Source of the DNA: a virus | Lineage: Duplodnaviria; Caudoviricetes | IMG/VR virus record: IMGVR_UViG_3300035208_002851 | Span: 1-64,000 of that record | DNA: 64,000 nucleotides | Direction: 5' to 3' (one strand) | Shown: piece after piece, positions 29,324-58,775 of the stretch | How the letters are laid out: the number at the start of each line of letters is the position of its first letter | How positions within the stretch are numbered: position 1 is the stretch's first letter | Notes under the pieces: generated by a model | Databases searched by the model: none | What the model saw: the letters and a program-made list of their open reading frames with translations, nothing else | What the model was told of the DNA's origin: nothing | Translations under genes and position numbers: made by a program

Positions 29324-29324
29324 T

Positions 29325-37754: not shown

Positions 37755-37755
37755 A

Positions 37756-41821: not shown

Positions 41822-42207
41822 GTGGTAATAACGCAGAATGGATTAAACGCAGAAAAGAACTTTTAAGTAACATAAAGAAATTTAAGTCAGAAGGAGATAG
41901 ATTAAGTAAAACTACCCAAATTAACTATATGCATAATGCTATGCATGAATCCGTAGTAGGTTTCTCTGGATGGTTAAATGGTTGGATTTCTACAGAATTA
42001 ACAAAGAAAATCAAGGTTGATGAACAATCAATTCCAATTTTGACAGATAAAGAATTAGATGATTTCTTCATGAGATATCAAGACATCGCCACCAAATTCA
42101 TAGAGTTAGACATTGAAATCACAGATAGTATCACTAAGAAAGCAAAAAAGAAAACCATCTTCAACAAATTCGAAATTAAAGATACTTCTTCACGGATGGT
42201 TGTTTAA
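41818..42207 (+). CDS. DUF2153-like archaeal protein
   Basis: W....LL..I......DRL......M...F..WL...FIELDI..T pattern. Confidence 0.55.
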   Translation: MSGNNAEWIKRRKELLSNIKKFKSEGDRLSKTTQINYMHNAMHESVVGFSGWLNGWISTELTKKIKVDEQSIPILTDKELDDFFMRYQDIATKFIELDIEITDSITKKAKKKTIFNKFEIKDTSSRMVV

Positions 42208-43314
42208 TTGAAGGTTGCACTTGTAAGTACACTTGGAGTTAAATGTGGGATTTCAACCTATAGTACATACCTTGGAGATGAACTTAATAAACTTACAAAT
42301 GTTTTTGTAACTGGGTTAGCTGAATTTCCATTTCCAGATGATAGAGCTATAGATACTTTTAAACCCTCCTTTCCTTATTATAATTGCTGGCAACGTTCAG
42401 AACCATATAAAAATTTAATAGAAGAATCTAAGAAGTTTGATTATGACATCTATCATATACAACATCAATTTGGATTGTTTTCAAATGAGCAAGATACAAT
42501 AGAACTTTATGAAAAATGTAAGAAGCCTATTATCACAACTTTACATGATGTAGTACAACCAGATCCTAGAATGAGTAGATATTTTTCCTCGATTATAGAA
42601 AACTCTTCTAAACTTATAGTTCATACAAAAACTTGCTATGATTTACTACAGCAATGGAATTGTCCAACTTCTAAAATAGAATTAATACCACATGGCACAA
42701 AACTTATAGATGTTCCAGACAAATTAGAAGCCCGAAGAGTTCTACAGATTCCAGAAAAAGCCAAAGTTATACTTTCGTGGGGATTTATTTGGGAATCCAA
42801 AGGTATCCTAGATTTAGTTAAAATTTTAACTGAAGTTAAAAAAGTATACCCAGAAACAATCTTAGTACACGCAGGTGGCGTTCACCCAATAATTCAAGGT
42901 TCATCATATCTACAAAATATCTTTAAAACAGCTCTTAAAGATGGGTTAACACCTAAAGATTTAATTGTTACAGGTTGGCTTGCCGAAGATAAAGTTCCTC
43001 TCTATTTCAGTGCTTCAGATTTAATAGTTTTAAACTATATGCGTGGTTCTGCAAGTGCAAGCGGTGCAGCCCACAGAGCAATGGCAGCTCATAGACCTTT
43101 GGTTGGAACTGATGATCCATGCCTAAATGGGGATATACCAAGATATATTGTTCCTCGTTTTGATATAAATGCCCTGAAAGATGGGATAGTCAAAGTTCTA
43201 TCTGATGAAGTTCTACAGAAATCTTTAGTTGAGCAAGCTGATAAAGTTGCACAAGAAACCTCTTGGAGTAATACTGCTAAAAAACATTTAGCAGTTTACT
43301 CATCTAGTTATTAA
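42208..43314 (+). CDS. GT4 glycosyltransferase (paralog of 37756)
   Basis: CGISTY, HIQH, TTLHD, IPHG, KG, SASGAAH. Confidence 0.88.
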   Translation: MKVALVSTLGVKCGISTYSTYLGDELNKLTNVFVTGLAEFPFPDDRAIDTFKPSFPYYNCWQRSEPYKNLIEESKKFDYDIYHIQHQFGLFSNEQDTIELYEKCKKPIITTLHDVVQPDPRMSRYFSSIIENSSKLIVHTKTCYDLLQQWNCPTSKIELIPHGTKLIDVPDKLEARRVLQIPEKAKVILSWGFIWESKGILDLVKILTEVKKVYPETILVHAGGVHPIIQGSSYLQNIFKTALKDGLTPKDLIVTGWLAEDKVPLYFSASDLIVLNYMRGSASASGAAHRAMAAHRPLVGTDDPCLNGDIPRYIVPRFDINALKDGIVKVLSDEVLQKSLVEQADKVAQETSWSNTAKKHLAVYSSSY

Positions 43315-45033
43315 TAATGGCAAACCACCAGATATAGCAGCCATTTTTTGTAAAATATTCCTCTTATCTTCAGCAGCTTGAACAGGATAATTCATTATAG
43401 GTACAGGAATTCTTTTTTGAGCTTGGTCTGTAAATAAACATTTACTTGTTAATGTATTACCAGACCAATTATGTTCTAAATCTATTAATTCAAAATTAGA
43501 ATTGATATCCTCAGAATTTATAATTACTGGATATCTTGTTCCTATAACATAAGGTCTCGTAATTGCAGTTATATCTATTTGAGTTGTAGGACTTTGATTT
43601 ATACTTAATTTTGTATCTCCAGTATTTTTAGCATATAAAGAATTATTAATATTATCATCATTAATAATTTCAGTTCTTAAACCATAGGCATTTATAGAAT
43701 TACTACCACTGGTATGATATTGAAATTTTGTTCCAAAATAAAGTCCATCAACATCAATTTCTTTAGTACTTGAACTATTTGCATATGCAAAAGAAACGGA
43801 TGTTATATTATACCAATCTGGATTACCTATTCTTTCCCATTTATAAGAACCAGTTGTCGTATTATAACTACCAGTTATACTTATTCCTTCATAAGCTGCA
43901 CCCAAATTAATGGTATACTCATACCATGTTAATACACCACTATTATTTTGGGATTCTAAAACACATGCAAAATAATCATTCCATCCATTTGTATGTAAAT
44001 TTACAAATAACGGAGTACTCAATCCAGTGGTAGGCATACAAAGATAAAAATGCAATATATCTCCGCTGTTTAATGATAACGTATTTGGAAGCGTTTTTAT
44101 AAACCTTAATGCACTATATGTAACAGGAGCAGATCCTGTTTGAGTATAAATAAAGGAACTTCCAGTAGCACTACCTATAGAATAAGAAACTACATGGACT
44201 GATTTATTTATACCAGAACCAGTTAATCTCCCTTCCCATCCAGTAAGGTTTGTCTCAGTCCAACTATCGTGACTCATTGGTATGTCTGAACCCGATATTG
44301 AAGATGAATCTCTAACACCAAAAACATAATAATCATTTTTTATATCGGCTAAATCTTTGACATATTTATAACTTAGTATATCTACTCCTTCCTCAAATGT
44401 TGTAGTAGAATCCAAATAAGACTGCCTTGGAAACCAATGTAAATTACTTCCAGTATCAGTATAGTAATCTTTATTATCAAAATCTGAAATTTCTGTTAAA
44501 CCATCAAAACACGATGTGTTATCTTGTACAAATTCATATATGTCGGATGAACCACTAATAAAAGTATTTGTAGATGCTAACCCAGCAGCATTTTTCAAGG
44601 AAACTGCACTTTCATACAAAGAACCTGTATACATTCTACGTTGTAATATTCTTTCTAAAGGCTCTCCCAAATCTCTACCAGTAAAAGTTCTATAACAGCC
44701 AGATTCAGAATAAGAAACTTCTTTTGTATCAATTCTACCAGTAAACATTTCCGAGGTTTGTGGTGTTAATCCAGAACCAGTATATCCAAACCACATTTTA
44801 ACAGTATCGAAAACTTCTATATCTTTAAAGGCATTGCCTGTAATAAATCCACTCGCATTGCTACCAGTATCAACAATTGTAATTTCAAAACTTCCCAGTG
44901 CCGTAGTTAATCCTGGTTTTACCCTAAAAGATATAAGTTCATTATTAATATAGCCATATCCAAATCCACGACGTTTGGTAGAACCACTCCAAAATTCGAT
45001 TTTATAAACTGGAGTATACATCATTAAACTCAA
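43300..45033 (-). CDS. Tail tip/baseplate hub protein
   Basis: Position after Dit-like and TMP genes, F.G.ID....GRD hub-like motif, 13 [ST]GS. Confidence 0.6.
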   Translation of the reverse strand: MSLMMYTPVYKIEFWSGSTKRRGFGYGYINNELISFRVKPGLTTALGSFEITIVDTGSNASGFITGNAFKDIEVFDTVKMWFGYTGSGLTPQTSEMFTGRIDTKEVSYSESGCYRTFTGRDLGEPLERILQRRMYTGSLYESAVSLKNAAGLASTNTFISGSSDIYEFVQDNTSCFDGLTEISDFDNKDYYTDTGSNLHWFPRQSYLDSTTTFEEGVDILSYKYVKDLADIKNDYYVFGVRDSSSISGSDIPMSHDSWTETNLTGWEGRLTGSGINKSVHVVSYSIGSATGSSFIYTQTGSAPVTYSALRFIKTLPNTLSLNSGDILHFYLCMPTTGLSTPLFVNLHTNGWNDYFACVLESQNNSGVLTWYEYTINLGAAYEGISITGSYNTTTGSYKWERIGNPDWYNITSVSFAYANSSSTKEIDVDGLYFGTKFQYHTSGSNSINAYGLRTEIINDDNINNSLYAKNTGDTKLSINQSPTTQIDITAITRPYVIGTRYPVIINSEDINSNFELIDLEHNWSGNTLTSKCLFTDQAQKRIPVPIMNYPVQAAEDKRNILQKMAAISGGLPLLITR

Positions 45034-45389
45034 AGTATTTCCACAGCCTCTAAACTAAACTTTCTTTCCATTGGATTTGTACCGGAATCTTTAAAATTTA
45101 TATTATAAAATAATATTGTAACTTTAGAAATTCCAGTCTCCAATGGATAAGTATATGTTAAAGAACCCGTAGTATTTTCTAATGCACTTATATAAGATGT
45201 TCCACCACCAACAGTAATTGTACCATCCAAAGTAAATTCTCTATTAGAAGTTCCAAACCTTTGAATAATATCCTTGTTAGCTCCAGGAAGTTTAATTATA
45301 GACATTTTTGTAGACTGTTTAACAGTTATAGTTTGAATACATCCATAAGAAAACTCTGTTCCTGAAGAATTTTTTATTATTGTTACCAT
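45030..45389 (-). CDS. Distal tail (Dit-like) protein
   Basis: LPG....IQ.FG...REFTL.G, follows TMP. Confidence 0.5.
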   Translation of the reverse strand: MVTIIKNSSGTEFSYGCIQTITVKQSTKMSIIKLPGANKDIIQRFGTSNREFTLDGTITVGGGTSYISALENTTGSLTYTYPLETGISKVTILFYNINFKDSGTNPMERKFSLEAVEIL

Positions 45390-45391
45390 TA

Positions 45392-46195
45392 TTATGAAAC
45401 TCCTCTTCTTCTTTTTTCAACAAGCATTCTTTTAGCCATTGCATCTAACATGTTATCAACACCTATGTTTGATGATATAGCACCTGTAGTCATATTAATG
45501 TTAACTACATTAAAATTTGATCCTCCGGCTGGAACAACAGTTTCATTTTTATGTAATAAATATGCACCAGTTGCTGGTATTGTACCACCTTTTTGATATG
45601 AAGGTAAAGACATGTATGATGCCGAAACAGCAGATGCTCCTGCTGCACCCGCAGCTAATAATCCCATTGCTGCTGGGTTACCTGCAACTGTTTGTAAAGT
45701 AGCATATGCACCGGCTACCTTCATTGTTGATGCCGCTTCCGCCAAATTCACTGTAGTTTTCGCAGCAGAAACCATAGAAGATATTACAATAGCGGTTCTA
45801 TACATATCCACGGCGGTTGTTGCAATTCTCATAGCTGCACTAATAGCATAAACATATCCTAAAAATTCTTTTACTTGTTGATTATTTCCCAAAAGATTCG
45901 TGTTTAAAATGGATATGCTTCTACCCATCAACATTAAATCCCAAGAAACACTGCGAATCGGGGAAATTTGGTTTCTTAGTTCATTAGAATACTCTTCAGC
46001 ATCTTCTTTAGATTGCCCCCATACACTTTTGGTAGTTCTACCTAATGTTAAAGTTTCTTTTTTAGCTTCTTCGGTACCAGTATTATCAAAGGAGGAAGTA
46101 ATATCAATATTTATAGTAAGACTTTCTCCTAATCCTCCAACACCACTGGTACCTTTACTTATTGATTGTCCTTCGGATGACGTACCCATTGCCAT
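45392..46195 (-). CDS. Short tape measure protein
   Basis: Follows the frameshifted chaperone. Ala-rich helices and C-terminal YQKGG....G..LLH.NE.VVP. Confidence 0.65.
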   Translation of the reverse strand: MAMGTSSEGQSISKGTSGVGGLGESLTINIDITSSFDNTGTEEAKKETLTLGRTTKSVWGQSKEDAEEYSNELRNQISPIRSVSWDLMLMGRSISILNTNLLGNNQQVKEFLGYVYAISAAMRIATTAVDMYRTAIVISSMVSAAKTTVNLAEAASTMKVAGAYATLQTVAGNPAAMGLLAAGAAGASAVSASYMSLPSYQKGGTIPATGAYLLHKNETVVPAGGSNFNVVNINMTTGAISSNIGVDNMLDAMAKRMLVEKRRRGVS

Positions 46196-46202
46196 TTAAT
46201 TT

Positions 46203-46747
46203 TTACCCCCGAAACTTTGATTCAGCAATTAATCTTCTATTTTCCTCATCTTGCTGCTGTTTTAATTCATTATCTATAATAATGAATTTCTGGATCTTTT
46301 TAGATTCCTCTTTTTCAAGCTGGCTCGGCAAGCAATGGAAAGTTTTACAGAGCTGGTAAGAAATAACATCAAAATCTGCTGTTTCTCCACCGGCCAGCGA
46401 ATTTATAAATTTTGTGTATCTACGTTTGAAACAAGATTAATATTCTGTGTAATCTGGAAGAGTCTTTCTCCAAGTTGACCATCAATGCTGCGCACCTCTT
46501 CAATCTTGAAAGACGCGGCTGTTTCATTTTCATACTTGAAAACAGTCTTTAAAAAGAATTGCTCATTAAAATGGACATTATTAAATGTTATAACGGAATT
46601 CATTGGGTTCACCACAGAACACTCACTTGTCAAAGTGTTCTTTTCACCCCAAGTCCACTTTCTAAAAGCAAATTTAGTTCCACTACCAGATGGAATTTCT
46701 GTAATATAATATTCTCCTTGTTTACTTAAATTGTATGTTTCTTTCAT
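46203..46747 (-). CDS. Tail assembly chaperone G/GT pair with programmed -1 frameshift
   Basis: ORF 46403..46747 ends A AAT TTA TAA. The -1 frame continues 67 codons (LCKTFHCLPSQL) to TAA at 46203, just before TMP. Confidence 0.8.
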
Positions 46748-46817
46748 TTTTTATCCTCCACGGATTTATATTTTTATCTTTTCTCAAGATTTTTTAAAAA
46801 ATTAAAAAAGATGGAAG

Positions 46818-47243
46818 TTAGTTTGTTCCTATTGTTAAACTGCCAGTTCCTGTGAAACTCCAAGATTCACTCATAAGGTTAGAACCTGGTCTGTGACTAA
46901 CTGAATTTTTATCCAGTTTCACTCCACCTAATCGAATATAAGGTTGTCCACTTGCTGTACCATTTGGATTAATCTGTATATCAATTATAGGCAAAGCCGC
47001 GTTTCCTCCTCCTGCTCCTTGGAATTCTGCCCAGACACCCGAACCTGTGTAGAATCTTTCAAGAGTACCCGTAGTACCATAAATTCCTTCAACAAGGTAT
47101 GTTGGATATCTAGAACCGCATTCTTCTTTTGCTTCAACATTATTTACGAAATCATATGATATTCTTTGTATACCATCTAATGTTTTGTAGGAACTTCCAG
47201 TTTTCCATTGAACAACCAACTGCCAGCCGGCGAAAGTCGTCAT
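46818..47243 (-). CDS. Tail tube protein
   Basis: Size, beta pattern (G...TGTLERF), upstream of the chaperone. Confidence 0.7.
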   Translation of the reverse strand: MTTFAGWQLVVQWKTGSSYKTLDGIQRISYDFVNNVEAKEECGSRYPTYLVEGIYGTTGTLERFYTGSGVWAEFQGAGGGNAALPIIDIQINPNGTASGQPYIRLGGVKLDKNSVSHRPGSNLMSESWSFTGTGSLTIGTN

Positions 47244-47244
47244 A

Positions 47245-47775
47245 CTAAGCACCTCCCTTTTCGTACTTTGTAACTAAAGTATCTCCATAAGCCATAAATA
47301 ATGGCGGTCTTGTAGTTAAATCATCTGTTCTTCTCCATTGAATATTATACATAAATGTTGACTCTCCAGTCGTTGAACTTGTATCAAAATCTGTAGAATT
47401 GAAATCTACAGGGTTAAAATTTTCTGTTGGAAAATTAATGTAACTTCCACTCCGAAGGATCCTCTCAACTTCTTTCCTCATTTTATATATTGCATTTTTT
47501 GCCCAACCTATACTTGAATTGGAATCTTGATTTGGTCTAACTATGATTTGTAGACCTAAAGTTTGTGTATCCTCATAAGTTGCTATACCAGCACCGAAGT
47601 CTATTGGAGGTGATGCATTTCCAGATTTAGGTATAACTATGATTTGCGGAAACGCAATACTTGAGTCATAAAATCTTGAACCCAATTTAACATTTCCATT
47701 ATTTATAGATAAATCTCCTGTTAAATTCCAGTTATTTTTTATAAGTTGCATCACAGTTATAACTAAATCTACCAT
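47245..47775 (-). CDS. Tail terminator-like protein, copy 2
   Basis: Paralog of 50426..50905, upstream of the tube. Confidence 0.5.
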   Translation of the reverse strand: MVDLVITVMQLIKNNWNLTGDLSINNGNVKLGSRFYDSSIAFPQIIVIPKSGNASPPIDFGAGIATYEDTQTLGLQIIVRPNQDSNSSIGWAKNAIYKMRKEVERILRSGSYINFPTENFNPVDFNSTDFDTSSTTGESTFMYNIQWRRTDDLTTRPPLFMAYGDTLVTKYEKGGA

Positions 47776-47789
47776 TATTAAATTTCCCC

Positions 47790-50429
47790 TTAAAATATAG
47801 AGGTAAAACTACCAGTAAATATATTTCCAGCAGTTCTAGAGTAGTAATTTGTAAAATCTCCATTAAATATAACAGGTCGCATAATATAAGCATTACCTAC
47901 CGTGTGTGAACCTAAAATAAAACCATTTATGGCAGTTGGTGAACTTACAAAGGATTGTAATGATAAGCCGTCAAAAGATGCCTTTTCAATATTACCGTCA
48001 TTATCTATAAAATTAACCGAATCACTATAAGTAAACATTTCAACATTACTAAATGTTGCACCAACTATTGAACCATTTTGTGGTATTCTAATCCCAGAAC
48101 CAGTGCCAAATAACCTTATAATAATATTTCTTGCATTTGTACCGCCATTTGATGTAGAAGGAAAATCCATACCAATAGATGGATTATTAATATAAATATT
48201 ATCTAAAATTGCATGACCAGTACTGGCAACGGAATTTGCAATTTGAATACCTATATTCACAGAGTTCATTTTTATGTTGGTTATTTCTGTTTGATAAGCA
48301 TCTAAAATTTGAATACCAGAATTTGTTTTATTTGTACCATCAATTTGGAACCCAGAAATTTTTGATCCATTATAAGAAAGGAAGCTTGTAGGAGATGTCA
48401 CTGTAAACGCAAAAATACTACCAGTTGGAACTATTTTTACTCCATCACTTAATAATGTAAGTTGTTTATCAGTAATAGTTATAGTCGAACTTATACTCCA
48501 ATTTTCATTATTGTTTTTAACATATATTGTAGAACCAGAAGGAGCTGCAACAATTGCCTGATTAATAACACTTGCAATATCAGTAAAAGTAGAAAAATCT
48601 GCCTTTCCAGTTAAACCATTTTTAGCATAGTATATTAAATTATCTCTATATATTAAATATGAATAAGGTTCTGCTTCTGGTAATAAATAATCATAATCAT
48701 CAACAAGAAACGTTTTTAATTTATTATAATTACCAATATCAATAACTTTTGTAAACAAATTCGTGTGACTTGAGTGTTCTTCAATCATGTCAAATGGCTG
48801 CACAAATCCAGTAGATGATGTATATAAAACAGTACCATCTGTGTCAAGGCTTGCACGTGTTGTTAATCCATACCTATTACTACCAGATGCAAATGTTTCA
48901 AATTTAGTTTGGAAAAGAATTGAATTCCGTAGTTGAAATTCACCAGAAGAAACCTCCATTGCAATTCCCGCAGCATTATCGGAATTTACCCAAAATGTAA
49001 GTTCTTCCCATAACCCATGTCCAACAGAAGAATTTCCCGGTAAATATATTCCACAACTATTTACATTATGAATATCCATATATATACGACTTAAATTAGT
49101 ATTATCAAATGAATAATGTATTAAAGGAAATGGTATAAATGTTATAGTTTTAGTACAATATACACTGTAAACATCATGTATATATGTGTGTTCTGTCCAA
49201 CAATTGTCTGCCGAAGTATTTTCTAACGCAATACCTCTATCCAAACCATAAACATGTAGCATGCCAACTTCATTTCCAAGCCCATTTCTAATTAAAATAC
49301 CATGATTAGTTCCGTGTACAAATTCTTTACCGCTTCCACTAATACTTAAATTTAATATATGGTTTTGTACCGATGCCATCCATGTTGATCCCAAAAGTTT
49401 AATAGTATAATCTCCATCTGTTTGATTAACAAAATTAACACCATCAGTTACAAAGGTAAGTCTTGTTTTATCTTGAATAAGTATTGGCGATGTAATAGGA
49501 ACATCTTTACCATCTGATTTTACAAAAATTATACTACCTGTAATTGGGGAACCTAAAATTGCAGCATTTATTACCGAAGAGGCATTTGTACCATCTATAC
49601 TCCCAGCACTACCCGATCCTCCATAATCTATTTCTCCGTTTTTACCATTTTCCGCCCAATAATAACCACTACCAGAATAAATAAGATATGTTACATCTTT
49701 TAACAATCCATGAGAAAAAAGAAAGTTAGAACCACTAATTACTCCTATAGAATTAATATTAGTTATATTTGCATTTGGGCCATAAAAATTAGAACCAGAT
49801 ATTAAACTTCCTGTTATATTATCCGCTATAATATTTTCAATTAAACTTAATGGTCCTCGAAAAAGACTTCCGGAAATTAAATTACTTCCAGTTATATTAT
49901 TTGCTATGATATTTGTAATTACAGCAATGGGTCCATAAAAGGCACTTCCAGAAACAAAAATACTACCAGTAATTTCAGACGCTGTAATACTTTCACGTAA
50001 ATATATAGTACCAGAATTCATATTAATTTCTGTTGATAAAACTCCTTCTTCATAATATGTTATTTTTCCCGCTTCAAAATCCATAATTGTACAAGTAGCT
50101 CCACCATTTGGAGTATAAGTTATTGTTGTTGCTCCATCTTCAAGTATTAAAGCAGTTTGATCTGGAACACTAATAGAACCTGTACCATAATTACCTGGTT
50201 TAATATGTAAATTGCCAGTACCTATAGAATTAATAGCTAATTGAATTAATCCAATACCATTACTTCCAGATGAACCCAAAATAGTTCCATTGGTTCCACT
50301 TAACATATCATAACTACCAGAACTGTTTTGCACAACAATTCTTGTAGCTGTTTTATTTAATGCATGATCCATCATCTGATTAAATCTTATAGCATTCATT
50401 TGTGGTGGTATTGTAAAACTTTCACTCAT
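47790..50429 (-). CDS. Large beta-helix (pectin-lyase-like) spike/adhesin with repeated modules
   Basis: Repeated YLIY....YYA.NG..G..D....ASVIN.AI....GS.I.VK modules followed by Asn/Ile/Gly-rich beta-helix. About 19 [ST]GS. Confidence 0.65.
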   Translation of the reverse strand: MSESFTIPPQMNAIRFNQMMDHALNKTATRIVVQNSSGSYDMLSGTNGTILGSSGSNGIGLIQLAINSIGTGNLHIKPGNYGTGSISVPDQTALILEDGATTITYTPNGGATCTIMDFEAGKITYYEEGVLSTEINMNSGTIYLRESITASEITGSIFVSGSAFYGPIAVITNIIANNITGSNLISGSLFRGPLSLIENIIADNITGSLISGSNFYGPNANITNINSIGVISGSNFLFSHGLLKDVTYLIYSGSGYYWAENGKNGEIDYGGSGSAGSIDGTNASSVINAAILGSPITGSIIFVKSDGKDVPITSPILIQDKTRLTFVTDGVNFVNQTDGDYTIKLLGSTWMASVQNHILNLSISGSGKEFVHGTNHGILIRNGLGNEVGMLHVYGLDRGIALENTSADNCWTEHTYIHDVYSVYCTKTITFIPFPLIHYSFDNTNLSRIYMDIHNVNSCGIYLPGNSSVGHGLWEELTFWVNSDNAAGIAMEVSSGEFQLRNSILFQTKFETFASGSNRYGLTTRASLDTDGTVLYTSSTGFVQPFDMIEEHSSHTNLFTKVIDIGNYNKLKTFLVDDYDYLLPEAEPYSYLIYRDNLIYYAKNGLTGKADFSTFTDIASVINQAIVAAPSGSTIYVKNNNENWSISSTITITDKQLTLLSDGVKIVPTGSIFAFTVTSPTSFLSYNGSKISGFQIDGTNKTNSGIQILDAYQTEITNIKMNSVNIGIQIANSVASTGHAILDNIYINNPSIGMDFPSTSNGGTNARNIIIRLFGTGSGIRIPQNGSIVGATFSNVEMFTYSDSVNFIDNDGNIEKASFDGLSLQSFVSSPTAINGFILGSHTVGNAYIMRPVIFNGDFTNYYSRTAGNIFTGSFTSIF

Positions 50430-50905
50430 GTTGAATAACCTTCGTAAATTCCTCTAAAATAATTATCTCGTAGTTCAAATCTTGATCTCAAAAGTATTGG
50501 TCGAGTATCTAATTCATCTATCGTCTTCCATCCATAGGAATAAATAAATGATTCATCATTTCCAGATGAAATATGGCTTCCACTTTTTATGATTCTATCA
50601 ACTTCCGTACGAAGTTGATATTCAATATTTTTTGCGCTTCCTAAACTTTTATTTGAATCTGAGTCAGGACGAACCCAAATATTTATAGATATCATATCTT
50701 GAAATTGATAAGTTGGAATTGGACCACATTCTATAAGAGAACCAAGTGATGTAACTGGAGTTATTGTGATTTGGGGCATACCTATTTTTGAATCATACCA
50801 ACCAGTTGAAAATTGTATTTCAGAAAGATTAATACCAGATTCTGTAGAACTCCAACCATTTTTTATAAGAATTAGAGTTTGAAGAATAGGATCAGTAGTT
50901 GTCAA
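50426..50905 (-). CDS. Tail terminator-like protein, copy 1
   Basis: Follows head closure, paralog of 47245..47775. Confidence 0.5.
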   Translation of the reverse strand: MTTTDPILQTLILIKNGWSSTESGINLSEIQFSTGWYDSKIGMPQITITPVTSLGSLIECGPIPTYQFQDMISINIWVRPDSDSNKSLGSAKNIEYQLRTEVDRIIKSGSHISSGNDESFIYSYGWKTIDELDTRPILLRSRFELRDNYFRGIYEGYST

Positions 50906-51324
50906 TAGGTAGAACCACTCCTTGGAACCAATCTTCTAATTCTTGCACTCTTAGAAATTAGTATACCGCCTTCGTACCATTCATGTAAAGGTAGTATTAA
51001 ATATCTTATACCACTATTTGCCGGGACAATAACCTGGTCCCAATGTTCAATTCCAGAATCACTTCGAACTTGAATAGAGTCTATATCTTCACCATAGAAG
51101 CCAGCGTTTGTTACGACATCTGAAGTATCTTCATGGGTAAGAATAGCATTGCAACTTCCTGTAATCCAGTAGACAATTTCATCACCATAACCATAAGTTG
51201 TAGTACTTCCAGTAGTAAACGATTCACTACCAGAAACAACTCTACGAAGCCATTGAATTTGTGTACCCAAAGCATCTACAGTAGTGTTTACTTTATCTTG
51301 TGCAGATTGGAAGTTTATATTCAT
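50902..51324 (-). CDS. Head closure protein (putative)
   Basis: Size and synteny after the adaptor. Confidence 0.5.
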   Translation of the reverse strand: MNINFQSAQDKVNTTVDALGTQIQWLRRVVSGSESFTTGSTTTYGYGDEIVYWITGSCNAILTHEDTSDVVTNAGFYGEDIDSIQVRSDSGIEHWDQVIVPANSGIRYLILPLHEWYEGGILISKSARIRRLVPRSGSTY

Positions 51325-51355
51325 TTATTAGGTTCCTCACCTAAATTTTATTAAC

Positions 51356-51814
51356 TTAATAATAACTTGGAGCAGTATCACGATATGTTGGTTCATTAGA
51401 TTCTGCGCTTACAGAAAGCGGTTGTATAGCTCTCAAGTGTAATTGCGCGGCTTCTTTAAATTCAGCAATTAAATTTCTATAGGTTGCTAAAAGTAAAGGC
51501 TGTTGAATAGTAATGCCCGCTGTAATTGAAAACCCGTCTACTATAACATCTCCACTAAGAAGTGTTAAAACTCTCATACAACTATAGTCAAGCTCCGCAG
51601 CTCTTAAATGATAAAATGTTACATCATCGGTGGCAGCCATTTTATCTTGACCTAAAACACCAGTAAGATAATAATTAGCCATGTTAATTTGAGCAAGTAC
51701 ACTTCCAGATGATAAAGGTACATTCCAAAATACATAACTACTACCGCTATAAGTACCATTTAATACTTGCCGGACATCTTCGCACGTTACTATAGGATAT
51801 ATTGATGTTGACAT
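51356..51814 (-). CDS. Head-tail adaptor (putative)
   Basis: T.EDVR..L start, helical, synteny. Confidence 0.55.
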   Translation of the reverse strand: MSTSIYPIVTCEDVRQVLNGTYSGSSYVFWNVPLSSGSVLAQINMANYYLTGVLGQDKMAATDDVTFYHLRAAELDYSCMRVLTLLSGDVIVDGFSITAGITIQQPLLLATYRNLIAEFKEAAQLHLRAIQPLSVSAESNEPTYRDTAPSYY

Positions 51815-51815
51815 A

Positions 51816-51947
51816 TCATTTAGCCACTATATATACTTCTTGCCCTTCCTTTCTTAAGAAGTCACTTTGAGAACTTGGAATAGTTAACCATGTATATTTA
51901 TAAACCCAATAATCTAATAAGAGGTATCGTTCAGCTAAACTAACCAT
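51816..51947 (-). CDS. Hypothetical small protein (43 aa)
   Basis: Manual translation MVSLAERYLLLDYW..., fills the gap exactly. Confidence 0.45.
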   Translation of the reverse strand: MVSLAERYLLLDYWVYKYTWLTIPSSQSDFLRKEGQEVYIVAK

Positions 51948-51949
51948 TT

Positions 51950-53317
51950 TTAAGCCTCAATTACGTATCCTACATCAAATGGAACAGTAATATTATCTGT
52001 AACATTACTCATTATATATAATGCTTCGTTTGCAGCACTAATTCTTGGTTGACTAAATTGTTGATGTATACTTCCAGAATTGGAAAATGTTAAAAATCTC
52101 TTTGATTGTACAGAACCTGTAGTATTACCAAAATAGAAATAATGTAACCCATCTGTTTTGGTAGCAAATCCTGCATCATAAATTTTAATTCTTAAACCAG
52201 AACCAGAATTTATAATCATACTACCACTACCAGCAACAAGAGTAGTACCGTCACTCCCAGAATTAATTAAGGCAACCGAACCAGATATTCCAATTGAATA
52301 ATTGGAAATGGATCCTGTAATAGCTAATGTAATTGTTGAACCTGTAATATTTATTCCAGAAATATTAGTTACTGAAGTTAATGATCCAGTTATTGCTTGT
52401 GTGTAACTGGAACCAGTAATACCTATTGGTGTATTTAATCCAATAGAACCACTTATTGGTAATGTTGAAGATGCATAAATTGAACCAGTAATTGCTAATG
52501 TGTTTGTAGATCCAGTAATATTTATACCACTAATATTCGTAATTGAGGTTAGGGAACCTGATATAGGTAGAGTTAATGTAGAACCTGTTATGTTTATACC
52601 AGAAATATTAGTTATAGATGTTAGAGAACCTGTAACCGGAAATGTAATTGTAGAACCCGTAATGTTTATACTACCAGATATGTTTGTTGTAATTAATGTA
52701 ACGGAGCCCGTAATTGCCTGTGTATAACTTGAGCCAGATAAACCTATTGTTCCGCCAGTTATATTTGCAGATCCAGTTACTGCAAGTGTTCTTGTACTTC
52801 CTGTAATATTAACTCCAGATATATCTGTCACACTTGTTAAGGAACCAGTAACTGGCAAAGTTGATGCGGCATTAAAACTTCCAGTTATTGAAAACGTTAT
52901 TATGGATCCAGTTATTCGTATATTTGGATTATTAGTAACCGATGTTAAAGAACCTGTTATTGGTAAAGTTGTTGTAGATCCTGTAAGTCTAACACCAGAT
53001 ATATCTGTAATAGTAGAAATTGTTGTAATTGAAGTTAAAGAACCAGTAACAGCTAATGTAGTTGTAGAGCCAGTAATTAATGAATATGAATTTATCTGTC
53101 CAACAGATTCTTCCATTGAAATTTTTAAATTACCAGCAGATGTTAAAGAAGTTGGAATTTGCGCAGTTTTTACTGGAGTTAAAACTGAACCTGTTTCATC
53201 CTGTAGAATAACAACTTCGGTATGAACATCACTACCACTAATAGAATTAACTACTGTTCGTTGTTTCTTTCCAAGACCAGAATCCAAAGGTAAAATTACA
53301 TAATTATCTACAGGCAT
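51950..53317 (-). CDS. TGS-repeat fibre-like virion protein
   Basis: About 31 [ST]GS in repeats such as ITGSLTSITNISGINITGST. Confidence 0.7.
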   Translation of the reverse strand: MPVDNYVILPLDSGLGKKQRTVVNSISGSDVHTEVVILQDETGSVLTPVKTAQIPTSLTSAGNLKISMEESVGQINSYSLITGSTTTLAVTGSLTSITTISTITDISGVRLTGSTTTLPITGSLTSVTNNPNIRITGSIITFSITGSFNAASTLPVTGSLTSVTDISGVNITGSTRTLAVTGSANITGGTIGLSGSSYTQAITGSVTLITTNISGSINITGSTITFPVTGSLTSITNISGINITGSTLTLPISGSLTSITNISGINITGSTNTLAITGSIYASSTLPISGSIGLNTPIGITGSSYTQAITGSLTSVTNISGINITGSTITLAITGSISNYSIGISGSVALINSGSDGTTLVAGSGSMIINSGSGLRIKIYDAGFATKTDGLHYFYFGNTTGSVQSKRFLTFSNSGSIHQQFSQPRISAANEALYIMSNVTDNITVPFDVGYVIEA

Positions 53318-53386
53318 TTTATTTTCACCAAATTAAAAAAGATATTAATATTTAAAATTTTTAAACTGAAGATATTCCCCATATCT

Positions 53387-53402
53387 CTATAGAACCATGA
53401 CC
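53387..53402 (-). promoter_or_regulatory. Candidate late-gene motif GGTCATG-N4-TATAG
   Basis: Shared with 58022-58037 and 62637-62651. Confidence 0.45.
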
Positions 53403-53427
53403 AAACCTAAAAATAAATAGTATTATT

Positions 53428-54294
53428 TTAAAAACTGTTTATGAAATCCATATTTATGTTAAGTTGACTACTTAATAAATATGAATTCTGGTTTTCTTCA
53501 CCAAAATAACCATGTTTTAGGGTTGTATTTTTATATAAATTGCGGAGGCATATACTACCAAAGATTAAACTAGAATCAGGATAACTATTATTAAGTGAAT
53601 TTAATTCTAAATCTGATAAAGATTTATTTTTCAGAAGTGTATAATAAGCACTTCTTCCATTAAAAAGTTGAGTGTTTAAATTGTAGCCGAATAATTCATC
53701 AGGTGATGTCGGGGTTCCTACTGTGTAACTGTTTGCGCCAAAAGTTAATACACCACTCGTGGATTTTGGATTTCCATCAATACTTATGCGGACAACTTTA
53801 TTGACGAAATCAACTTCACCGTAAACTAGGTGTTTTGTGGTAAGAGAGGGTGCAGTAACACCATAGGTTTGGACCGAATCAGTAAGTACACTTCTACATA
53901 AAACATTTAATAAACCACTTTCTACATTGATAGAAAATCCAGTTGAACCTGCGTTTATAGATAAAAATATTAAGCGTCCCATATTAGTTACGTCGTCTAA
54001 ACTAACCCACGCATACATGGAAATAACAGTAGCGCCATTAAAAAGTGAAGTTAATGGGTTAGTTGTGGCGAAAGTAATATAATCACCTGTTCCGTTTGCG
54101 TCTCTACAGGTTTTACCAGCGAAAAAAGGAGAAGCTACTATTGTGGTTCCTGTTGCTGCACCATTATTGCTATTTCCCGAAGTATCCAACACGGGGTTAG
54201 TAGCTACTGGTTCCTCCATCTTCCAAGTTCCCACCACACTAGGTATAATATTTATTGGATTAACCTCATTTAATAATCCAATAGGAGGAGTCAA
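53428..54294 (-). CDS. LamG/concanavalin A-like domain virion protein
   Basis: W.MEE......DTSGN.N.G, GTGDYI, SMYAWV, F.G. Confidence 0.75.
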   Translation of the reverse strand: MTPPIGLLNEVNPINIIPSVVGTWKMEEPVATNPVLDTSGNSNNGAATGTTIVASPFFAGKTCRDANGTGDYITFATTNPLTSLFNGATVISMYAWVSLDDVTNMGRLIFLSINAGSTGFSINVESGLLNVLCRSVLTDSVQTYGVTAPSLTTKHLVYGEVDFVNKVVRISIDGNPKSTSGVLTFGANSYTVGTPTSPDELFGYNLNTQLFNGRSAYYTLLKNKSLSDLELNSLNNSYPDSSLIFGSICLRNLYKNTTLKHGYFGEENQNSYLLSSQLNINMDFINSF

Positions 54295-54297
54295 GGT

Positions 54298-54663
54298 TTA
54301 ACTCACCACTATAAATAAACTACCAGAAACTGCCGCTGCTGCATTATTGCTAATAAGACTAACTTTAATTAGTGGCACGGAATCAAAAAATGTGAAATAA
54401 CTTAGAGAACCACTGTTGAAACTACCACTTTTTAATTGATAATAATTGGTTCTATCAAATGATCCAGAAACAACCAAAGAACCTGATGATTGTGTAGTAG
54501 GATATAAATAAGCATAAATACTCTTAACAGAGTAAGGTGAAACATCGAAGGCGGAGCTAACTATAGATCCTGTTATACCTATAGTAACGTTATTAGTTGA
54601 ATAAAGAGTTTTAGAAAGACCAGAAGTTGAAGTTTTAAAATTTGAAGTAATTGGAGTTGACAT
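54298..54663 (-). CDS. Small beta-sandwich virion protein
   Basis: Follows MCP, 6 [ST]GS in 121 aa. Confidence 0.55.
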   Translation of the reverse strand: MSTPITSNFKTSTSGLSKTLYSTNNVTIGITGSIVSSAFDVSPYSVKSIYAYLYPTTQSSGSLVVSGSFDRTNYYQLKSGSFNSGSLSYFTFFDSVPLIKVSLISNNAAAAVSGSLFIVVS

Positions 54664-54683
54664 ATGTTTTCCTCAAACATTTT

Positions 54684-54707
54684 TTAGGGGGAATTTCACC
54701 CCCAAAA
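54684..54707 (-). terminator. GC hairpin near a T-tract downstream of MCP
   Basis: GGGGG-TGAAATT-CCCCC, with T-runs after the MCP stop. Confidence 0.35.
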
Positions 54708-54739
54708 TATTTTTATAAAAAAACTAAAGTATTTTATTT

Positions 54740-55669
54740 TTAGGTAACGTTAATACCTGCGATGGCGCAAATCGTTTGGCCTTGAAGCACAACTGGGGAA
54801 TATCTTGCTGTGATGTAAACGCCCACTGAATCTCTTTCTTCAATTGCTTTAATACCAGTAGTAATTGCTCTACGTTCAACAAACATACCCATAGGTGAAT
54901 ATTGACCCATAATGTTTGAAGTTTTGCCTCTTGAAAGGACGTAAATACTACCAGTTGGACAATTGGTTGAAGAGAATGCATCCAGACCCAAGATATCTCC
55001 GAACTTACCAGGTACTTGCATCAAACCTTCTTGTAGAATGGGTTCGCCATAATGCATTAAGGATGTGAAGTGTGGAAGTTTTTCAATGTGAGTCTTAGCT
55101 AATGGGTGACATAGCATGGTATCAGGCATATAGTTGAACTGTTCTACCTGTGCTTTGGCATTGATAATATCGTATGTTCCGACACCTGGACCACCTGAGC
55201 CAGAAATAACGAATTCTGTTCCATCGAAAGCAAGAGATTTACCTGTTGCCGTAACTGAACTACCTGTACCAGCGCCTATTGCGGCGATACAGTCTTTGTC
55301 AATTTTATTGGCAAAGCGTAGTGAAGCACGGATAAGTTGATCTTGCTGGATAGGAATCAAAGAGTCTTCGATCATTTCTTTAGTTACAAGGAATCCATGT
55401 GCAATTTTATAAGGAACAACGTTTACTGAACTGTATGCGGTGACATCTAATGGAATTTCGACACCTTCAGCAACTTTCTGAACTACAGCACCTGTACTAC
55501 CCGATTGTTTCGGGAAAGTAATTGAGTTAGATGCGGTAAGAGAGTATTGCTGGAAGAATTGCCGAGCAACCATGTTAGGCATAGCAATTTGTAGAACTTG
55601 TTGGTGTAAAGCCGGATAAAGCAAACCTGCGGTTGTGACTGGTGATAAAACTTGACGTTGTAGTGACAT
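54740..55669 (-). CDS. Major capsid protein (HK97 fold)
   Basis: VAEG.EIP, K.A....VTKEMIEDS, PDT...HP, G.I.GL. Follows protease and decoration genes. Confidence 0.88.
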   Translation of the reverse strand: MSLQRQVLSPVTTAGLLYPALHQQVLQIAMPNMVARQFFQQYSLTASNSITFPKQSGSTGAVVQKVAEGVEIPLDVTAYSSVNVVPYKIAHGFLVTKEMIEDSLIPIQQDQLIRASLRFANKIDKDCIAAIGAGTGSSVTATGKSLAFDGTEFVISGSGGPGVGTYDIINAKAQVEQFNYMPDTMLCHPLAKTHIEKLPHFTSLMHYGEPILQEGLMQVPGKFGDILGLDAFSSTNCPTGSIYVLSRGKTSNIMGQYSPMGMFVERRAITTGIKAIEERDSVGVYITARYSPVVLQGQTICAIAGINVT

Positions 55670-55778
55670 TTTTTAATTTTCCTCCATAATTTTTTTGTTA
55701 TTTAATTAAATTCACGGTTAATTAGGTAACTGATTTAACAGTCACTTTTTTTATTAAAAAAAAGAAAGGGATATTTTT

Positions 55779-56204
55779 TTAAGCTACATTATCCATGCAG
55801 TTTATGAATGCATATGTGTAACCTGCGCTTCCTGAGACGGTCTTACCTGCTACTTGTGCTACTTTAGTGCTTCCAGAAGTTCCCCAATAACCTGATCCTG
55901 TAATGACTAGTGGTTGACCAAATCTTACAGTACCTGTTGCGGGTAACGATGGCAAGCTTTTTACGTAACCCCAGACAATAACTCCTAAAGGATCGCCATC
56001 TGAAACTGTTGCTGTAGCGACACCTGCGGGAATCAAAGAACCTGAGGGTGCACTTGTAGGCATGTAACAATAACCAGGATTAGTTGATTCAACAACAACT
56101 GCTCTACCTGCGATAATACTTCCTGAAGCTGCAAGAGTAATAACCATTGCTGGTGTAACTGCTAGATAATCTGTAGTTCCTTCGTATGTTAAAAATGCTG
56201 ACAT
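55779..56204 (-). CDS. Capsid decoration/cement protein
   Basis: Between protease and MCP, A...I.AG..V....GVA......G pattern. Confidence 0.65.
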   Translation of the reverse strand: MSAFLTYEGTTDYLAVTPAMVITLAASGSIIAGRAVVVESTNPGYCYMPTSAPSGSLIPAGVATATVSDGDPLGVIVWGYVKSLPSLPATGTVRFGQPLVITGSGYWGTSGSTKVAQVAGKTVSGSAGYTYAFINCMDNVA

Positions 56205-56215
56205 TTTTATTTCTC

Positions 56216-57364
56216 CTACTCCATTAGATGAGCTTCAGCGAAAGCTTTAATTTCTTTAAACCACACTGGTATAGCATCTGCTGTAACTTCCTGAGTTGCT
56301 TCGTCTGGAGATTCAACTTTCGCACCTTTAAGTGCTTCTTTCTTTTTAGCTTTCTTAGTAGCTTCTTTTTCTTCTTCGGGTTCTTCTTCCTCTTCTTCTT
56401 CTGGACATGTTGGTTTTTCGAACTTGCTTGCTGGAACATCCTTAGGAATACCAGAACTTGTTTCGTCTTTCTTAACTTTGACTTTCATAAGTTCTTCAAA
56501 CTTTGCAACTGCTGAACTAAGTTGCTCAAGTTTAGTAGCTACTTCTTCTTTTTTCTTTACTTCTTCTTCTTCTTTCTTTTTATTTTCATCTATTTCAGCT
56601 TTCTTTTTAGTTTCTTCTTCCTTTCGGAATTTTTCTTCAAACTTTGCAAGTTGAGCTGTAATAGCTTCAAGTTTTTCTCCAAGTAAAACAACTGCGTCTG
56701 CGCCTGCTGGTTTTAATGTAGTTGCCTTAATTTCTTCGGTCATGTTTGTTTTTTCCTCCGCTGTTTTATATAAAATAGGTCCTGCCTTTTCCTCATCCGA
56801 AGAATAAGGCGTGACTTGATTAGCAGCCAAAGCTGCTGTAATAGAAGCAGCAAACCCCATTGGAGCAAATTCGCTTGTACGGTATGCTGGTTCTGTAACA
56901 ATTGAAGCTTCCTTCAATCTTATATTTTTAATAATATCATGAGAACCTTTACATTTACAAGTTTTAATTGGTCTTGATGGCGTATTACATTTTGAACAAA
57001 AAGCATCTGCTGAAGCACCAATACTAATATATTTTAGTCTACCCTTCATTACAGACCTTTGAATTGAAGGGTCGTCAATTTCGGCTTCAAACATAACACG
57101 TTTATTCTTTTCGTCGTATGAACCAAGTCTAAATCCACCAATTACATCTCTTGCGGATTTGCTGTGGTCCAGCCTTAAAGTTGCATCCTTAACTTGATTT
57201 GCAACCTTCGGCAATTCTTCCATATCAAGAGCAAAGTTGTTAGCACACACATCACCATTAACTAATTCACCCGAAATAAGTAATGTTCCAGAATCATCCT
57301 TATTTTCATTCTGTTTTGATTCTATAATATTTGCATGCCAATTAAACTTTAGATTTTCACTCAT
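56216..57364 (-). CDS. Prohead protease with C-terminal scaffold
   Basis: LRLDH, ISIGA, EASIVTEPAY, charged coiled-coil tail. Confidence 0.85.
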   Translation of the reverse strand: MSENLKFNWHANIIESKQNENKDDSGTLLISGELVNGDVCANNFALDMEELPKVANQVKDATLRLDHSKSARDVIGGFRLGSYDEKNKRVMFEAEIDDPSIQRSVMKGRLKYISIGASADAFCSKCNTPSRPIKTCKCKGSHDIIKNIRLKEASIVTEPAYRTSEFAPMGFAASITAALAANQVTPYSSDEEKAGPILYKTAEEKTNMTEEIKATTLKPAGADAVVLLGEKLEAITAQLAKFEEKFRKEEETKKKAEIDENKKKEEEEVKKKEEVATKLEQLSSAVAKFEELMKVKVKKDETSSGIPKDVPASKFEKPTCPEEEEEEEPEEEKEATKKAKKKEALKGAKVESPDEATQEVTADAIPVWFKEIKAFAEAHLME

Positions 57365-57421
57365 TATGTATCACTTTAAATAAATAAAATAGGGTCAAAT
57401 AGACCCAAAATTTGGTTCTTA

Positions 57422-57997
57422 TTACATAGAGCCCAATAAACTTGGACGGAGCCATACGTTAACAAATTGATGCCCATGTGTTACTGAAGCTGATCCTGTG
57501 GTTACTGCAATGCCAAGAGTACCTGAACCCGTTACTATTGTTGCTACCTGTGTACTTAAATTATCAACCATATAATAGCTGCCAGATTTTACTGCTGAGC
57601 CACTTAATGAATTGACAACCCACGCACCTTTGTTAATTGTTACTCCACTACCAGTTGTAATGAATGGAATTATACCCTGTGTAATAACACTTGCTGATTG
57701 ACCAGCTGTATAATCTGCTGCTGCAACGCCAAGTATTCCACCTTGAGCTACACCTGTAGCACCACTAATAAAGATACCCGAACCCGTGTTTGCGAAGAAA
57801 CATACTGGTTGGTATTTACCTATTGTGTTACCTGCGGTGAACCCTGATAGAATTATTGAGCCACTTGTTGCGAGCACATTTGTTTGAGTAATTGCACCAA
57901 CGGTGTTAGTATTATATAAATCTGTAGTTCTTACAACAGAAGTCCTAATTTCATTATATTCACTTAATGGATTTGCTCTATTCGGAACGGAAGCCAT
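57422..57997 (-). CDS. Second decoration-like virion protein
   Basis: ILGVA......G....VITQG beta-tulip-like pattern, 7 [ST]GS. Confidence 0.55.
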   Translation of the reverse strand: MASVPNRANPLSEYNEIRTSVVRTTDLYNTNTVGAITQTNVLATSGSIILSGFTAGNTIGKYQPVCFFANTGSGIFISGATGVAQGGILGVAAADYTAGQSASVITQGIIPFITTGSGVTINKGAWVVNSLSGSAVKSGSYYMVDNLSTQVATIVTGSGTLGIAVTTGSASVTHGHQFVNVWLRPSLLGSM

Positions 57998-58040: not shown

Positions 58041-58775
58041 TTAACTAATTCGCGCCAGCAATTTCTCCAATGAAGTTACTGGTAAGTCAGATACTCCTGC
58101 TAAAAGTTTTAAGTTATTTACCTTCCCCCTGAATAATAAAAACCCAAACTTTTCCGCTTTCTCAACTAAAGTTAAACTCTTATTTTCTTCAACCCAATCC
58201 GAAAGATTAATATTTGATAAACCTATAGTGTTAACCGTACGAACCATAACATTAATAGAACTATCTGCTCCAGTAACAATGCTTATCTTTTCCCATTCGT
58301 CCCTAAGGAAAGTAGCAATATCAAAATCCGATGGAATATCCGTAATTGGATGAGCATGTATAGTACCAATAACTTCCTCATTTTCTCTATACTCTTTAGT
58401 TTTCTTGAAAGTTACAGATAAATCTTCCCCTATATCAAGCATATCCATCCGTATACCTTCGGGAGTTTTAACCAATAGAGCACCAAATTCTTTTTTAGTG
58501 ATATTTGTAAATCTATAGATTTTTTGCACTTGTTCTTCAAAAACATCGTTAAGTATTAACTTACTAGAAACATACCATCGTTTTGTACAATCTGCACAAT
58601 TAAAACCAAAAACGATTTCTTTTTTCCTAACAATTTTAACTTGAACTCTAGACCTCAAATTTCCTTGACATCTAGGACATTGAAAATGCTTATTTTCAGG
58701 TTTAGTTTTATCTATAGAAAGAGATGGATAAAGCATTGAGGAAGTATGAACAGGATTTAAAATTTCAGTTGACAT
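58041..58775 (-). CDS. Zn-ribbon + JAB/MPN+ metalloprotease
   Basis: CPRC..CADC, E (KEFG) ... HAHP....PS..D. Confidence 0.75.
   Translation of the reverse strand: MSTEILNPVHTSSMLYPSLSIDKTKPENKHFQCPRCQGNLRSRVQVKIVRKKEIVFGFNCADCTKRWYVSSKLILNDVFEEQVQKIYRFTNITKKEFGALLVKTPEGIRMDMLDIGEDLSVTFKKTKEYRENEEVIGTIHAHPITDIPSDFDIATFLRDEWEKISIVTGADSSINVMVRTVNTIGLSNINLSDWVEENKSLTLVEKAEKFGFLLFRGKVNNLKLLAGVSDLPVTSLEKLLARIS

Follow-up and report, generated by a model that had tools for sequence, protein, structure and literature searches.

A Ser/Thr-Gly-Ser tripeptide under selection in the particle proteins of an uncultured tailed virus family: a candidate glycosylation sequon

Why do the particle proteins of one tailed virus carry the tripeptide Ser/Thr-Gly-Ser ([ST]GS) about nine times more often than their composition predicts? 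The question is raised by the IMG/VR record IMGVR_UViG_3300035208_002851, which is an uncultured tailed virus of ~101 kb. The window analysed in this work is the first 64 kb of that single 100,978-bp virus record, and the genes in question are located at 43300-57997. The motif proves to be real and highly specific, and the particle proteins are under selection for it throughout the family. We consider that the best explanation, with a probability of roughly 0.5, is that [ST]GS is a glycosylation sequon for a virus-made sugar coat.

A set of 82 open reading frames (ORFs) was translated and the [ST]GS motifs were tallied against 2000 composition-preserving shuffles per protein. The 17 minus-strand genes at 43300-57997 contain 98 motifs versus 11.1 expected, which is an 8.8-fold excess. 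The shuffle p value is at its floor of 0.0005 in six proteins, <=0.001 in eight, and <=0.005 in ten. The initial annotation of this DNA had reported about 100 motifs in the particle module, and our per-protein counts are identical (31, 19, 13, 7, 6, 5, 4, 4, 3, 2, and singles). The excess also outlasts the control for Ser, Thr, and Gly content that the shuffles provide. The genes are listed below with the observed and expected number of motifs.

43300-45033, minus strand: baseplate hub / central spike protein of 577 amino acids (aa), assigned by AlphaFold2 (AF2) model and Foldseek; 13 motifs versus 1.19
45030-45389, minus strand: 119-aa tail protein (putative Dit-like); 1 motif versus 0.27
45392-46195, minus strand: 267-aa tail-module protein rich in Ser, Thr, and Gly; 0 motifs versus 0.58
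46403-46747, minus strand: 114-aa protein (putative chaperone); 1 motif versus 0.07
46818-47252, minus strand: 144-aa protein (putative tail tube); 3 motifs versus 0.38, one of them in the C-terminal tail
47245-47775, minus strand: 176-aa tail protein; 1 motif versus 0.20
47790-50429, minus strand: 879-aa spike/fibre-like protein; 19 motifs versus 2.14
50426-50905, minus strand: 159-aa neck/tail protein; 1 motif versus 0.35
50902-51324, minus strand: 140-aa protein (putative head closure); 4 motifs versus 0.28
51356-51814, minus strand: 152-aa protein (putative adaptor); 2 motifs versus 0.13
51950-53317, minus strand: 455-aa TGS-repeat protein; 31 motifs versus 2.81
53428-54294, minus strand: 288-aa protein with a weak LamG / concanavalin-like match; 0 motifs versus 0.53
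54298-54663, minus strand: 121-aa Ser-rich protein directly downstream of the capsid gene; 6 motifs versus 0.61
54740-55669, minus strand: major capsid protein, HK97 fold; 4 motifs versus 0.33
55779-56204, minus strand: 141-aa cement/decoration-like protein with a weak Phage_cement_2 match; 5 motifs versus 0.41
56216-57364, minus strand: 382-aa protein (putative protease/scaffold); 0 motifs versus 0.12
57422-57997, minus strand: 191-aa cement/decoration-like protein; 7 motifs versus 0.72

The signal is specific to two tripeptides. TGS (63 versus 6.0 expected, z 23) and SGS (47 versus 6.4, z 16) are the top outliers in a scan of all tripeptides, and TGT (6 versus 5.9), SGT (7 versus 6.0), AGS (3 versus 3.1), and GGS are found at expectation. 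The Ser at position three is encoded by an AGY codon 46 times and by a TCN codon 53 times, and all four Gly codons are in use within the motif. Selection therefore acts on the protein and not on a DNA word, and a restriction site or another DNA word is ruled out as the cause by these mixed codons. A composition artefact is ruled out by the shuffles and by the excess in relatives with 45-49% G+C content (GC). Overlap with the N-x-S/T sequon (as in NITGS) was also rejected as the main signal, where Asn at position -2 is just 1.6-fold enriched.

The motif is carried by conserved folds that differ from one another, as the initial annotation had proposed: the HK97-fold capsid protein, the cement-like proteins, the hub, and the putative tube, adaptor, and head closure proteins. 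The two S/T/G-rich proteins at 45392-46195 and 53428-54294 have no motif where ~5 each would be predicted at the enrichment of the module. Orthologues of 45392-46195 in the 106-kb relative G001 and in the relatives L024 and L025 are likewise without the motif, which makes this protein a consistent exception that is perhaps internal or tape-measure-like.

Outside the particle module, the plus strand of the window exhibits no motif in 57 genes versus ~5.4 expected (P ~0.005), and only 7 of the 97 x-G-S tripeptides in non-particle proteins are S/T-G-S. Over the whole genome outside the structural arm, 6 motifs were found versus 10.3 expected (P 0.11), which is no robust depletion. The same part of G001 has 7 motifs versus 7.1 expected, and the glycan-locus enzymes of the relatives carry copies now and then. 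The claim that the main plus-arm enzymes lack the motif thus stands for the window and is not general genome-wide, and the suggestion that the motif is possibly avoided elsewhere is not upheld. The putative scaffold/protease, the portal, and TerL have no motif, as had been counted before. Their composition predicts just 0.1-0.3 motifs each, so the zeros mean that these proteins do not share the ~9-fold excess and do not amount to a depletion. The two of these genes that lie beyond 57997 are as follows.

60118-62091, minus strand: portal, in the minus arm
62994-64505, minus strand: TerL, extending past the window end

The motif excess was found in all of the relatives that were fetched (G001, L002, L003, L007, L021, L022, L024, L025, and L026), four of which have 45-49% GC. 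Pooled over ten family genomes or fragments, TGS occurs 291 times versus 41.7 expected (7.0-fold) and SGS 307 times versus 50.8 (6.0-fold), and the control tripeptides AGS (0.74-fold), TGT (0.76-fold), TAS (1.0-fold), and SGT (1.3-fold) are near expectation. Large particle proteins of G001 without BLAST match to this genome have 27, 33, 23, and 14 motifs. These motif-rich, non-homologous virion proteins are explained better by a trans-acting reader of the motif than by inheritance.

The four motifs of the capsid protein (residues 56, 135, 156, and 239 of 309) persist in ~50 homologues down to 54% identity with few gains and losses, and those at 47-48% and at 34% identity have at most one motif. 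The homologues of the hub were searched among 1.8 billion representative proteins. The close homologues (n=14, 39-54% identity) have 170 motifs versus 13.5 expected, with 10-17 motifs each and a mean of 12. The distant homologues of similar length (n=102, 24-33% identity) have 98 motifs versus 45.7 expected, where 54 proteins have none, 42 have one or two, and the mean is ~1. The distant homologues of hub and capsid are thus largely without the motif, and a requirement of the fold is ruled out by them. The motif-rich family forms one clade of the hub tree with a support of 1.0. Three rich proteins adjoin this clade and another rich protein (P0299) stands alone within a poor clade.

The positions of the motif are conserved in part. 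Nine orthologue pairs between this genome and G001 share 20 of 34 motif positions, and both positions in the putative adaptor (51356-51814) are kept in G001. The hubs of the two genomes have 13 and 11 motifs with four positions in common. As the count is kept despite so few shared positions, selection seems to act on motif density as well as on particular sites.

The mapping of the motifs on predicted structures places them at strand ends, turns, and loops in every case, 13 of 13 in the hub and 4 of 4 in the capsid protein. The AF2 model of the hub has a predicted local distance difference test (pLDDT) score of 89.9, and its Foldseek matches are the Mu gp44, extracellular contractile injection system (eCIS), and VgrG-like hubs. 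Each of its motifs coincides with the final residue of a strand, a hairpin turn of two residues, or a loop. For example, strand 8-16 ends at S16, the turn consists of G17-S18, and the next strand spans residues 19-25. The AF2 model of the capsid protein has a pLDDT of 74.8 and exhibits the HK97 fold. Foldseek matches it with a probability of 1.0 to the HFTV1 and HK97 capsid proteins, where the best match in the PDB is that of the haloarchaeal virus HFTV1, and its profile match is the PHROG major head protein (1e-16). Its motifs are at strand/loop borders, one after the first strand of the E-loop hairpin, one after the spine helix (105-133), and two at hairpins of the central domain. These elements of HK97-fold capsids are usually external.

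The same placement also suits a lineage-specific structural idiom with nothing attached, where x-[ST]-G-S-x closes beta-hairpins and has been spread by repeat duplication and drift or by selection for folding, solubility, or stability. Every mapped motif is at a strand end or turn. The residues I, V, and W are favoured at position -1 and D, E, K, and P are avoided nearby, as hairpins predict. Much of the count also comes from repetitive fibre-like proteins, with 31 motifs in 51950-53317 and ~10 in the ITGSxxxSGSxF repeats at residues 150-300 of 47790-50429, and there is no robust avoidance of the motif elsewhere in the genome. However, the distant homologues do without the motif in the same folds, and the unrelated, non-repetitive folds of the capsid, cement, hub, and neck proteins carry it. 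The third position is never Thr in place of Ser and the second is never Ala in place of Gly, which is stricter than turn propensities explain. The beta-rich non-virion proteins of this genome and the two S/T/G-rich module proteins named above are without the motif, and the excess persists across 30-49% GC. We regard a purely structural idiom as unlikely.

A reader of the motif may be sought among the glycosyltransferases (GTs) that the virus encodes. The features concerned are as follows.

28001-42207, plus strand: glycan-synthesis locus, recognised by Pfam matches
42208-43314, plus strand: soluble GT4-type glycosyltransferase, Glycos_transf_1 43.3 bits and Glyco_transf_4 41.1 bits, both above the Pfam cut-offs
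23030-24274, plus strand: second soluble GT4, Glycos_transf_1 70.0 bits; Glyco_transf_4 26.3 bits, just below the cut-off of 28.5

The locus begins with a B12-radical-SAM enzyme, a nucleotidyltransferase, a split thiamine diphosphate (ThDP) enzyme, a short-chain dehydrogenase/reductase (SDR), and two 4,6-dehydratase-like SDRs, followed by a Vsr-like endonuclease. It continues with a GT2, two methyltransferases, a GT4, a DegT-fold enzyme, two GT2s, and DUF2153. Six transferases were identified by Pfam, which are the GT2s at 35666, 40272, and 41045 and the GT4s at 37756, 42208, and 23030. A Kyte-Doolittle scan found no transmembrane segment in any of the six, and the Pfam matches in 28-43 kb include no Wzx flippase, oligosaccharyltransferase, or PglL/AglB family.

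The GT4 at 42208-43314 is the last gene of the glycan locus and is convergent with the hub gene in every member examined. It has 57 homologues at 42-100% identity, and the next one is at 30%. The stretch RGSASASGAAH stands in place of the EX7E motif, where R279, G280, S281, S283-A287, and H289 are invariant in 44 homologues. Its paralogue at 37756-38880 is also without EX7E. The sole match to 42208-43314 in the phage collection is at 26% identity, in a 595-kb uncultured phage, and the ESM Atlas returned generic GT4 clusters only. The GT4 at 23030-24274 has the canonical EX7E (EGFGIPILE, residues 285-293) and lies outside the glycan locus, with primase-like genes and NrdD as its neighbours. It has 43 homologues at 44-95% identity, and the next one is at 32%. 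Both GT4s are present on ~100-kb contigs of the virus family and are family-specific core genes. The leading candidate for the enzyme that reads the motif is 42208-43314, and 23030-24274 could be an alternative reader or a DNA-modifying transferase.

The sugar-synthesis genes vary by member. The ThDP-enzyme/DegT set is found here and in G001, other methyltransferases in L022 and L024-L026, and an RGP-type mutase, an epimerase, and a radical-SAM/SPASM enzyme in L007 and L021. A transferase that stays constant while the sugar supply changes is what one would expect if protein priming is fixed and the glycan is variable. In the two last-named relatives, the RGP-family (PF03214) protein, which is akin to UDP-arabinopyranose mutases, is located beside a GT4 and an epimerase (L007:4673-5800 and L021:4738-5844), and this hints at a furanose sugar in the glycan of these members. 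The ThDP-dependent enzyme is encoded here by two overlapping ORFs at 30501-31046 (N domain) and 31030-32256 (M plus C domains), and by one 596-aa ORF in the 106-kb relative. The split could be a frameshift, a genuine split, or a sequencing error.

The co-occurrence of motif excess and transferase that the initial annotation had anticipated is family-wide. No GT1- or GT2-family match was found in the 47 kb of the outgroup G003, a record about half complete whose capsid is 39% identical, and its particle proteins have 0-2 motifs each, counted by eye as were those of the outgroup L031. The virus contig L023, with a GT4 at 29% identity and other transferases, has no motif excess, and neither do L004 and L005/L006. 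This co-occurrence represents one phylogenetic event so far.

The sequon reading that we favour can be set out as follows. The [ST]-G-S tripeptide would be a short linear acceptor signal at the beta-strand ends and tight turns of outward-facing particle proteins. The reader would be a soluble virus-encoded glycosyltransferase in the host cytoplasm, for which the GT-B enzyme at 42208-43314 is the best candidate and the GT4 at 23030-24274 the alternative, and it would place the first sugar on the Ser/Thr hydroxyl. The remaining soluble GT2 and GT4 enzymes of the 28-43 kb locus, together with its two methyltransferases, may extend and cap the glycan, and the locus itself would make the unusual deoxy sugars. 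In the resulting tailed virion, the capsid, cement proteins, neck, tube, baseplate hub, and fibres would all bear O-glycans. A more detailed version is put forward tentatively: a three-residue O-glycosylation sequon on folded beta-turns, a reader that is a new GT-B subtype with the RGSASASGAAH-type stretch for EX7E, and virions coated at thousands of sites with rare branched or methylated deoxy sugars.

The acceptor-sequon interpretation is consistent with the excess, the order specificity, the turn location, and the co-occurrence described above. Several points weigh against it. No genome-wide avoidance of the motif is found in non-virion proteins, though a promiscuous cytoplasmic enzyme might impose one. 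Gly tripeptides are expected in turns anyway, and the turn location alone cannot separate a sequon from a structural idiom. So far the transferase and the motif have been gained jointly once on the tree, such that common descent alone may account for their association. The motif-rich hub lineages P0302, P0324, P0356, and P0299 are on 2-5 kb contigs, which are too short for transferase scoring, and the contrast of P0302, P0324, and P0299 with the nearest motif-free lineage (P0310) likewise depends on contigs of 2-5 kb or on a contig without DNA. The two transferases are equally conserved, and one of them has replication genes around it, a setting in which it might plausibly glycosylate DNA. The glycan locus could instead be used to modify DNA or the host surface. 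We infer the sugar attachment, the acceptor residue, and the responsible enzyme from sequence and models.

One alternative is that the motif and the glycan locus are unrelated. The motif would then have its own cause, and the 28-43 kb locus and the GT4s would serve to glycosylate viral DNA or to remodel the envelope or S-layer of the host. Glucosylation of DNA and changes of host serotype are known activities of phage transferases (PMC12619734 and the works cited there), the GT4 at 23030-24274 sits between primase-like genes and NrdD, and the co-occurrence is phylogenetically non-independent. However, the GT4 at 42208-43314 adjoins the tail genes in all members examined, and six soluble transferases with methyltransferases and a rare-sugar pathway exceed the needs of known DNA glucosylation. 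This alternative also leaves the motif itself unexplained, and we consider it very unlikely.

Another alternative accepts a trans-acting reader of a different kind, such as phosphorylation, acylation, a radical-SAM change, the ester-linked conjugation of ubiquitin-like or IGG-ended proteins, or the docking of a chaperone or cement protein on the turns. The evidence for a trans-acting reader leaves its type unspecified. A B12-radical-SAM enzyme is encoded in the genome, a radical-SAM/SPASM enzyme lies beside the transferases in some relatives, and the conserved head-module protein at 58041-58775 has weak JAB-like and Zn-ribbon matches. However, the B12-radical-SAM gene is without BLAST match in the motif-bearing 106-kb relative, and the SPASM enzyme occurs in some relatives only (L007 and L021) with none among the window proteins scanned. 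No kinase or acyltransferase turned up among the proteins scanned, and the two GT4s are the sole enzymes shown to track the family boundary. A reader other than a glycosyltransferase is improbable.

The sequon reading can be compared with known glycosylation systems. Self-encoded glycosylation of tailed-virus particles has been chemically shown in few systems so far. The closest known kind would be the virion glycosylation of mycobacteriophages by phage-encoded transferases, where glycans are reported at the C-termini of capsid and tail-tube subunits (Freeman et al. 2023, as cited in PMC12619734). As far as that summary goes, both are tailed viruses with soluble glycosyltransferases of their own, for which their own capsid and tail proteins are the proposed targets in the cytoplasm. 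By the same summary, the mycobacteriophage glycans at C-termini are chemically shown, whereas the putative sites here are ~100 in number, dispersed in at least 13 proteins, and marked by a strict tripeptide at turns. The virus here is also probably archaeal, and few of its motifs are in C-terminal tails; the capsid sites are at residues 56, 135, 156, and 239 of 309, and the mycobacteriophage pattern of an acceptor region at the C-termini of the capsid and tube subunits is not seen.

The best mechanistic analogy may be the hyper-glycosylation of autotransporters. The heptosyltransferases of the TibC/TibA and Aah/AIDA-I systems, said to have been described by Lu et al. 2014 and Yao et al. 2014, are reportedly soluble enzymes that hyper-glycosylate Ser at many sites of a beta-rich surface protein in the cytoplasm. 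They are said to recognise an element of the type short strand - short loop - short strand, and the hub and capsid motifs are placed in the same way in the AF2 models. Unlike these enzymes, the candidates here are GT4-type, their targets would be many proteins and not one adhesin, and the signal is a defined tripeptide. No member of the TibC/Aah family turned up in the Pfam and NCBIfam scans of the transferases, which were not a dedicated search. Neither the mycobacteriophage nor the autotransporter system is known to use the [ST]GS tripeptide.

Two further systems share some of these features. The chlorovirus PBCV-1 has virus-encoded, host-independent glycan machinery with soluble transferases in the cytoplasm, methylated unusual sugars, and non-canonical sites on its capsid protein, but its host is eukaryotic and its capsid has a double-jelly-roll fold. 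The glycans of PBCV-1 are N-linked, and we know of no [ST]GS rule for this virus. Its GT4 B736L (PDB 3oy2) is a weak sequence match to 23030-24274 (E 4e-4). The GtfA/GtfB O-GlcNAc transferase is a GT4-family enzyme that O-glycosylates protein Ser directly in the cytoplasm at very many sites, but its acceptors are Ser-rich low-complexity repeats of adhesins and not turns in folded domains. The GtfA equivalog model (TIGR02918, NCBIfam) scored 23.0 bits, far below its cut-off of 574.6. The features of membrane-coupled O- or N-glycosylation were not found, with no lipid-linked assembly family in the 28-43 kb locus and no transmembrane segment in the transferases. The literature search found no published sequence rule for virion glycosylation and no paper on a Ser-Gly-Ser sequon, and in that literature HFTV1, the closest solved particle, is not reported to be glycosylated.

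The window has a GC of 0.30-0.38, and the genome around these genes has two arms. Genes for replication and nucleotides (an RFC-like clamp loader, primase-like proteins, the anaerobic NrdD, and a DNA methylase) are found on the plus arm (1-43 kb) together with the 15-kb glycan locus, and the particle module makes up the minus arm (43-66 kb). Two further ORFs with the motif lie beyond 57997.

62282-62617: ORF with one further motif, counted in the shuffle survey
64469-66007, minus strand: 512-aa protein upstream of TerL, probably particle-associated, outside the window; 12 motifs versus 1.2

The head module also includes a 244-aa protein at 58041-58775 with weak Prok-JAB and Zn-ribbon matches, which is among the best conserved proteins with 68% identity to G001. 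Two other tripeptides are enriched. CGS is 3.3-fold above expectation in the ten family genomes or fragments (27 versus 8.2), is found here mostly in Cys-rich non-particle proteins, and is probably unrelated to [ST]GS. IGG is the top tripeptide outlier of the non-particle proteins in the whole genome (26 versus 6.1, z 8.0). The capsid genes of the relatives P0063, P0069, P0071, P0072, and P0079 are fused to or split by DUF559/Vsr-like or LAGLIDADG endonuclease domains, and free-standing Vsr-like genes are located at 34109-34747 in the glycan locus here and at L025:18496-19431 in a structural module. These insertions look like mobile homing-endonuclease elements.

The virus DNA is present in landfill and groundwater metagenomes, and one relative originates from a 0.1-um groundwater fraction. 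No RNA run is listed among the sequencing runs that hold this DNA. With the capsid protein as query, the genome-contig search returned zero relatives and the phage collection returned no homologue. The host is probably archaeal, which fits the RFC-type clamp loader, the weak primase-like matches, and DUF2153.

If the sequon reading is true, virion glycosylation could become predictable from sequence alone. A countable tripeptide tag would allow glycan-coated virions to be recognised in metagenomes, and outward-facing proteins and their loops to be picked without structures. The tag would also nominate a small set of enzymes and might serve as a portable glyco-tag for protein engineering. About 15 kb of the 101-kb genome is spent on sugars, so the function must be valuable to the virus family. 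In this family of anoxic groundwater and landfill, a glycan coat would influence how stable the particles are, how they adhere and recognise the host, and how far they are exposed to its proteases.

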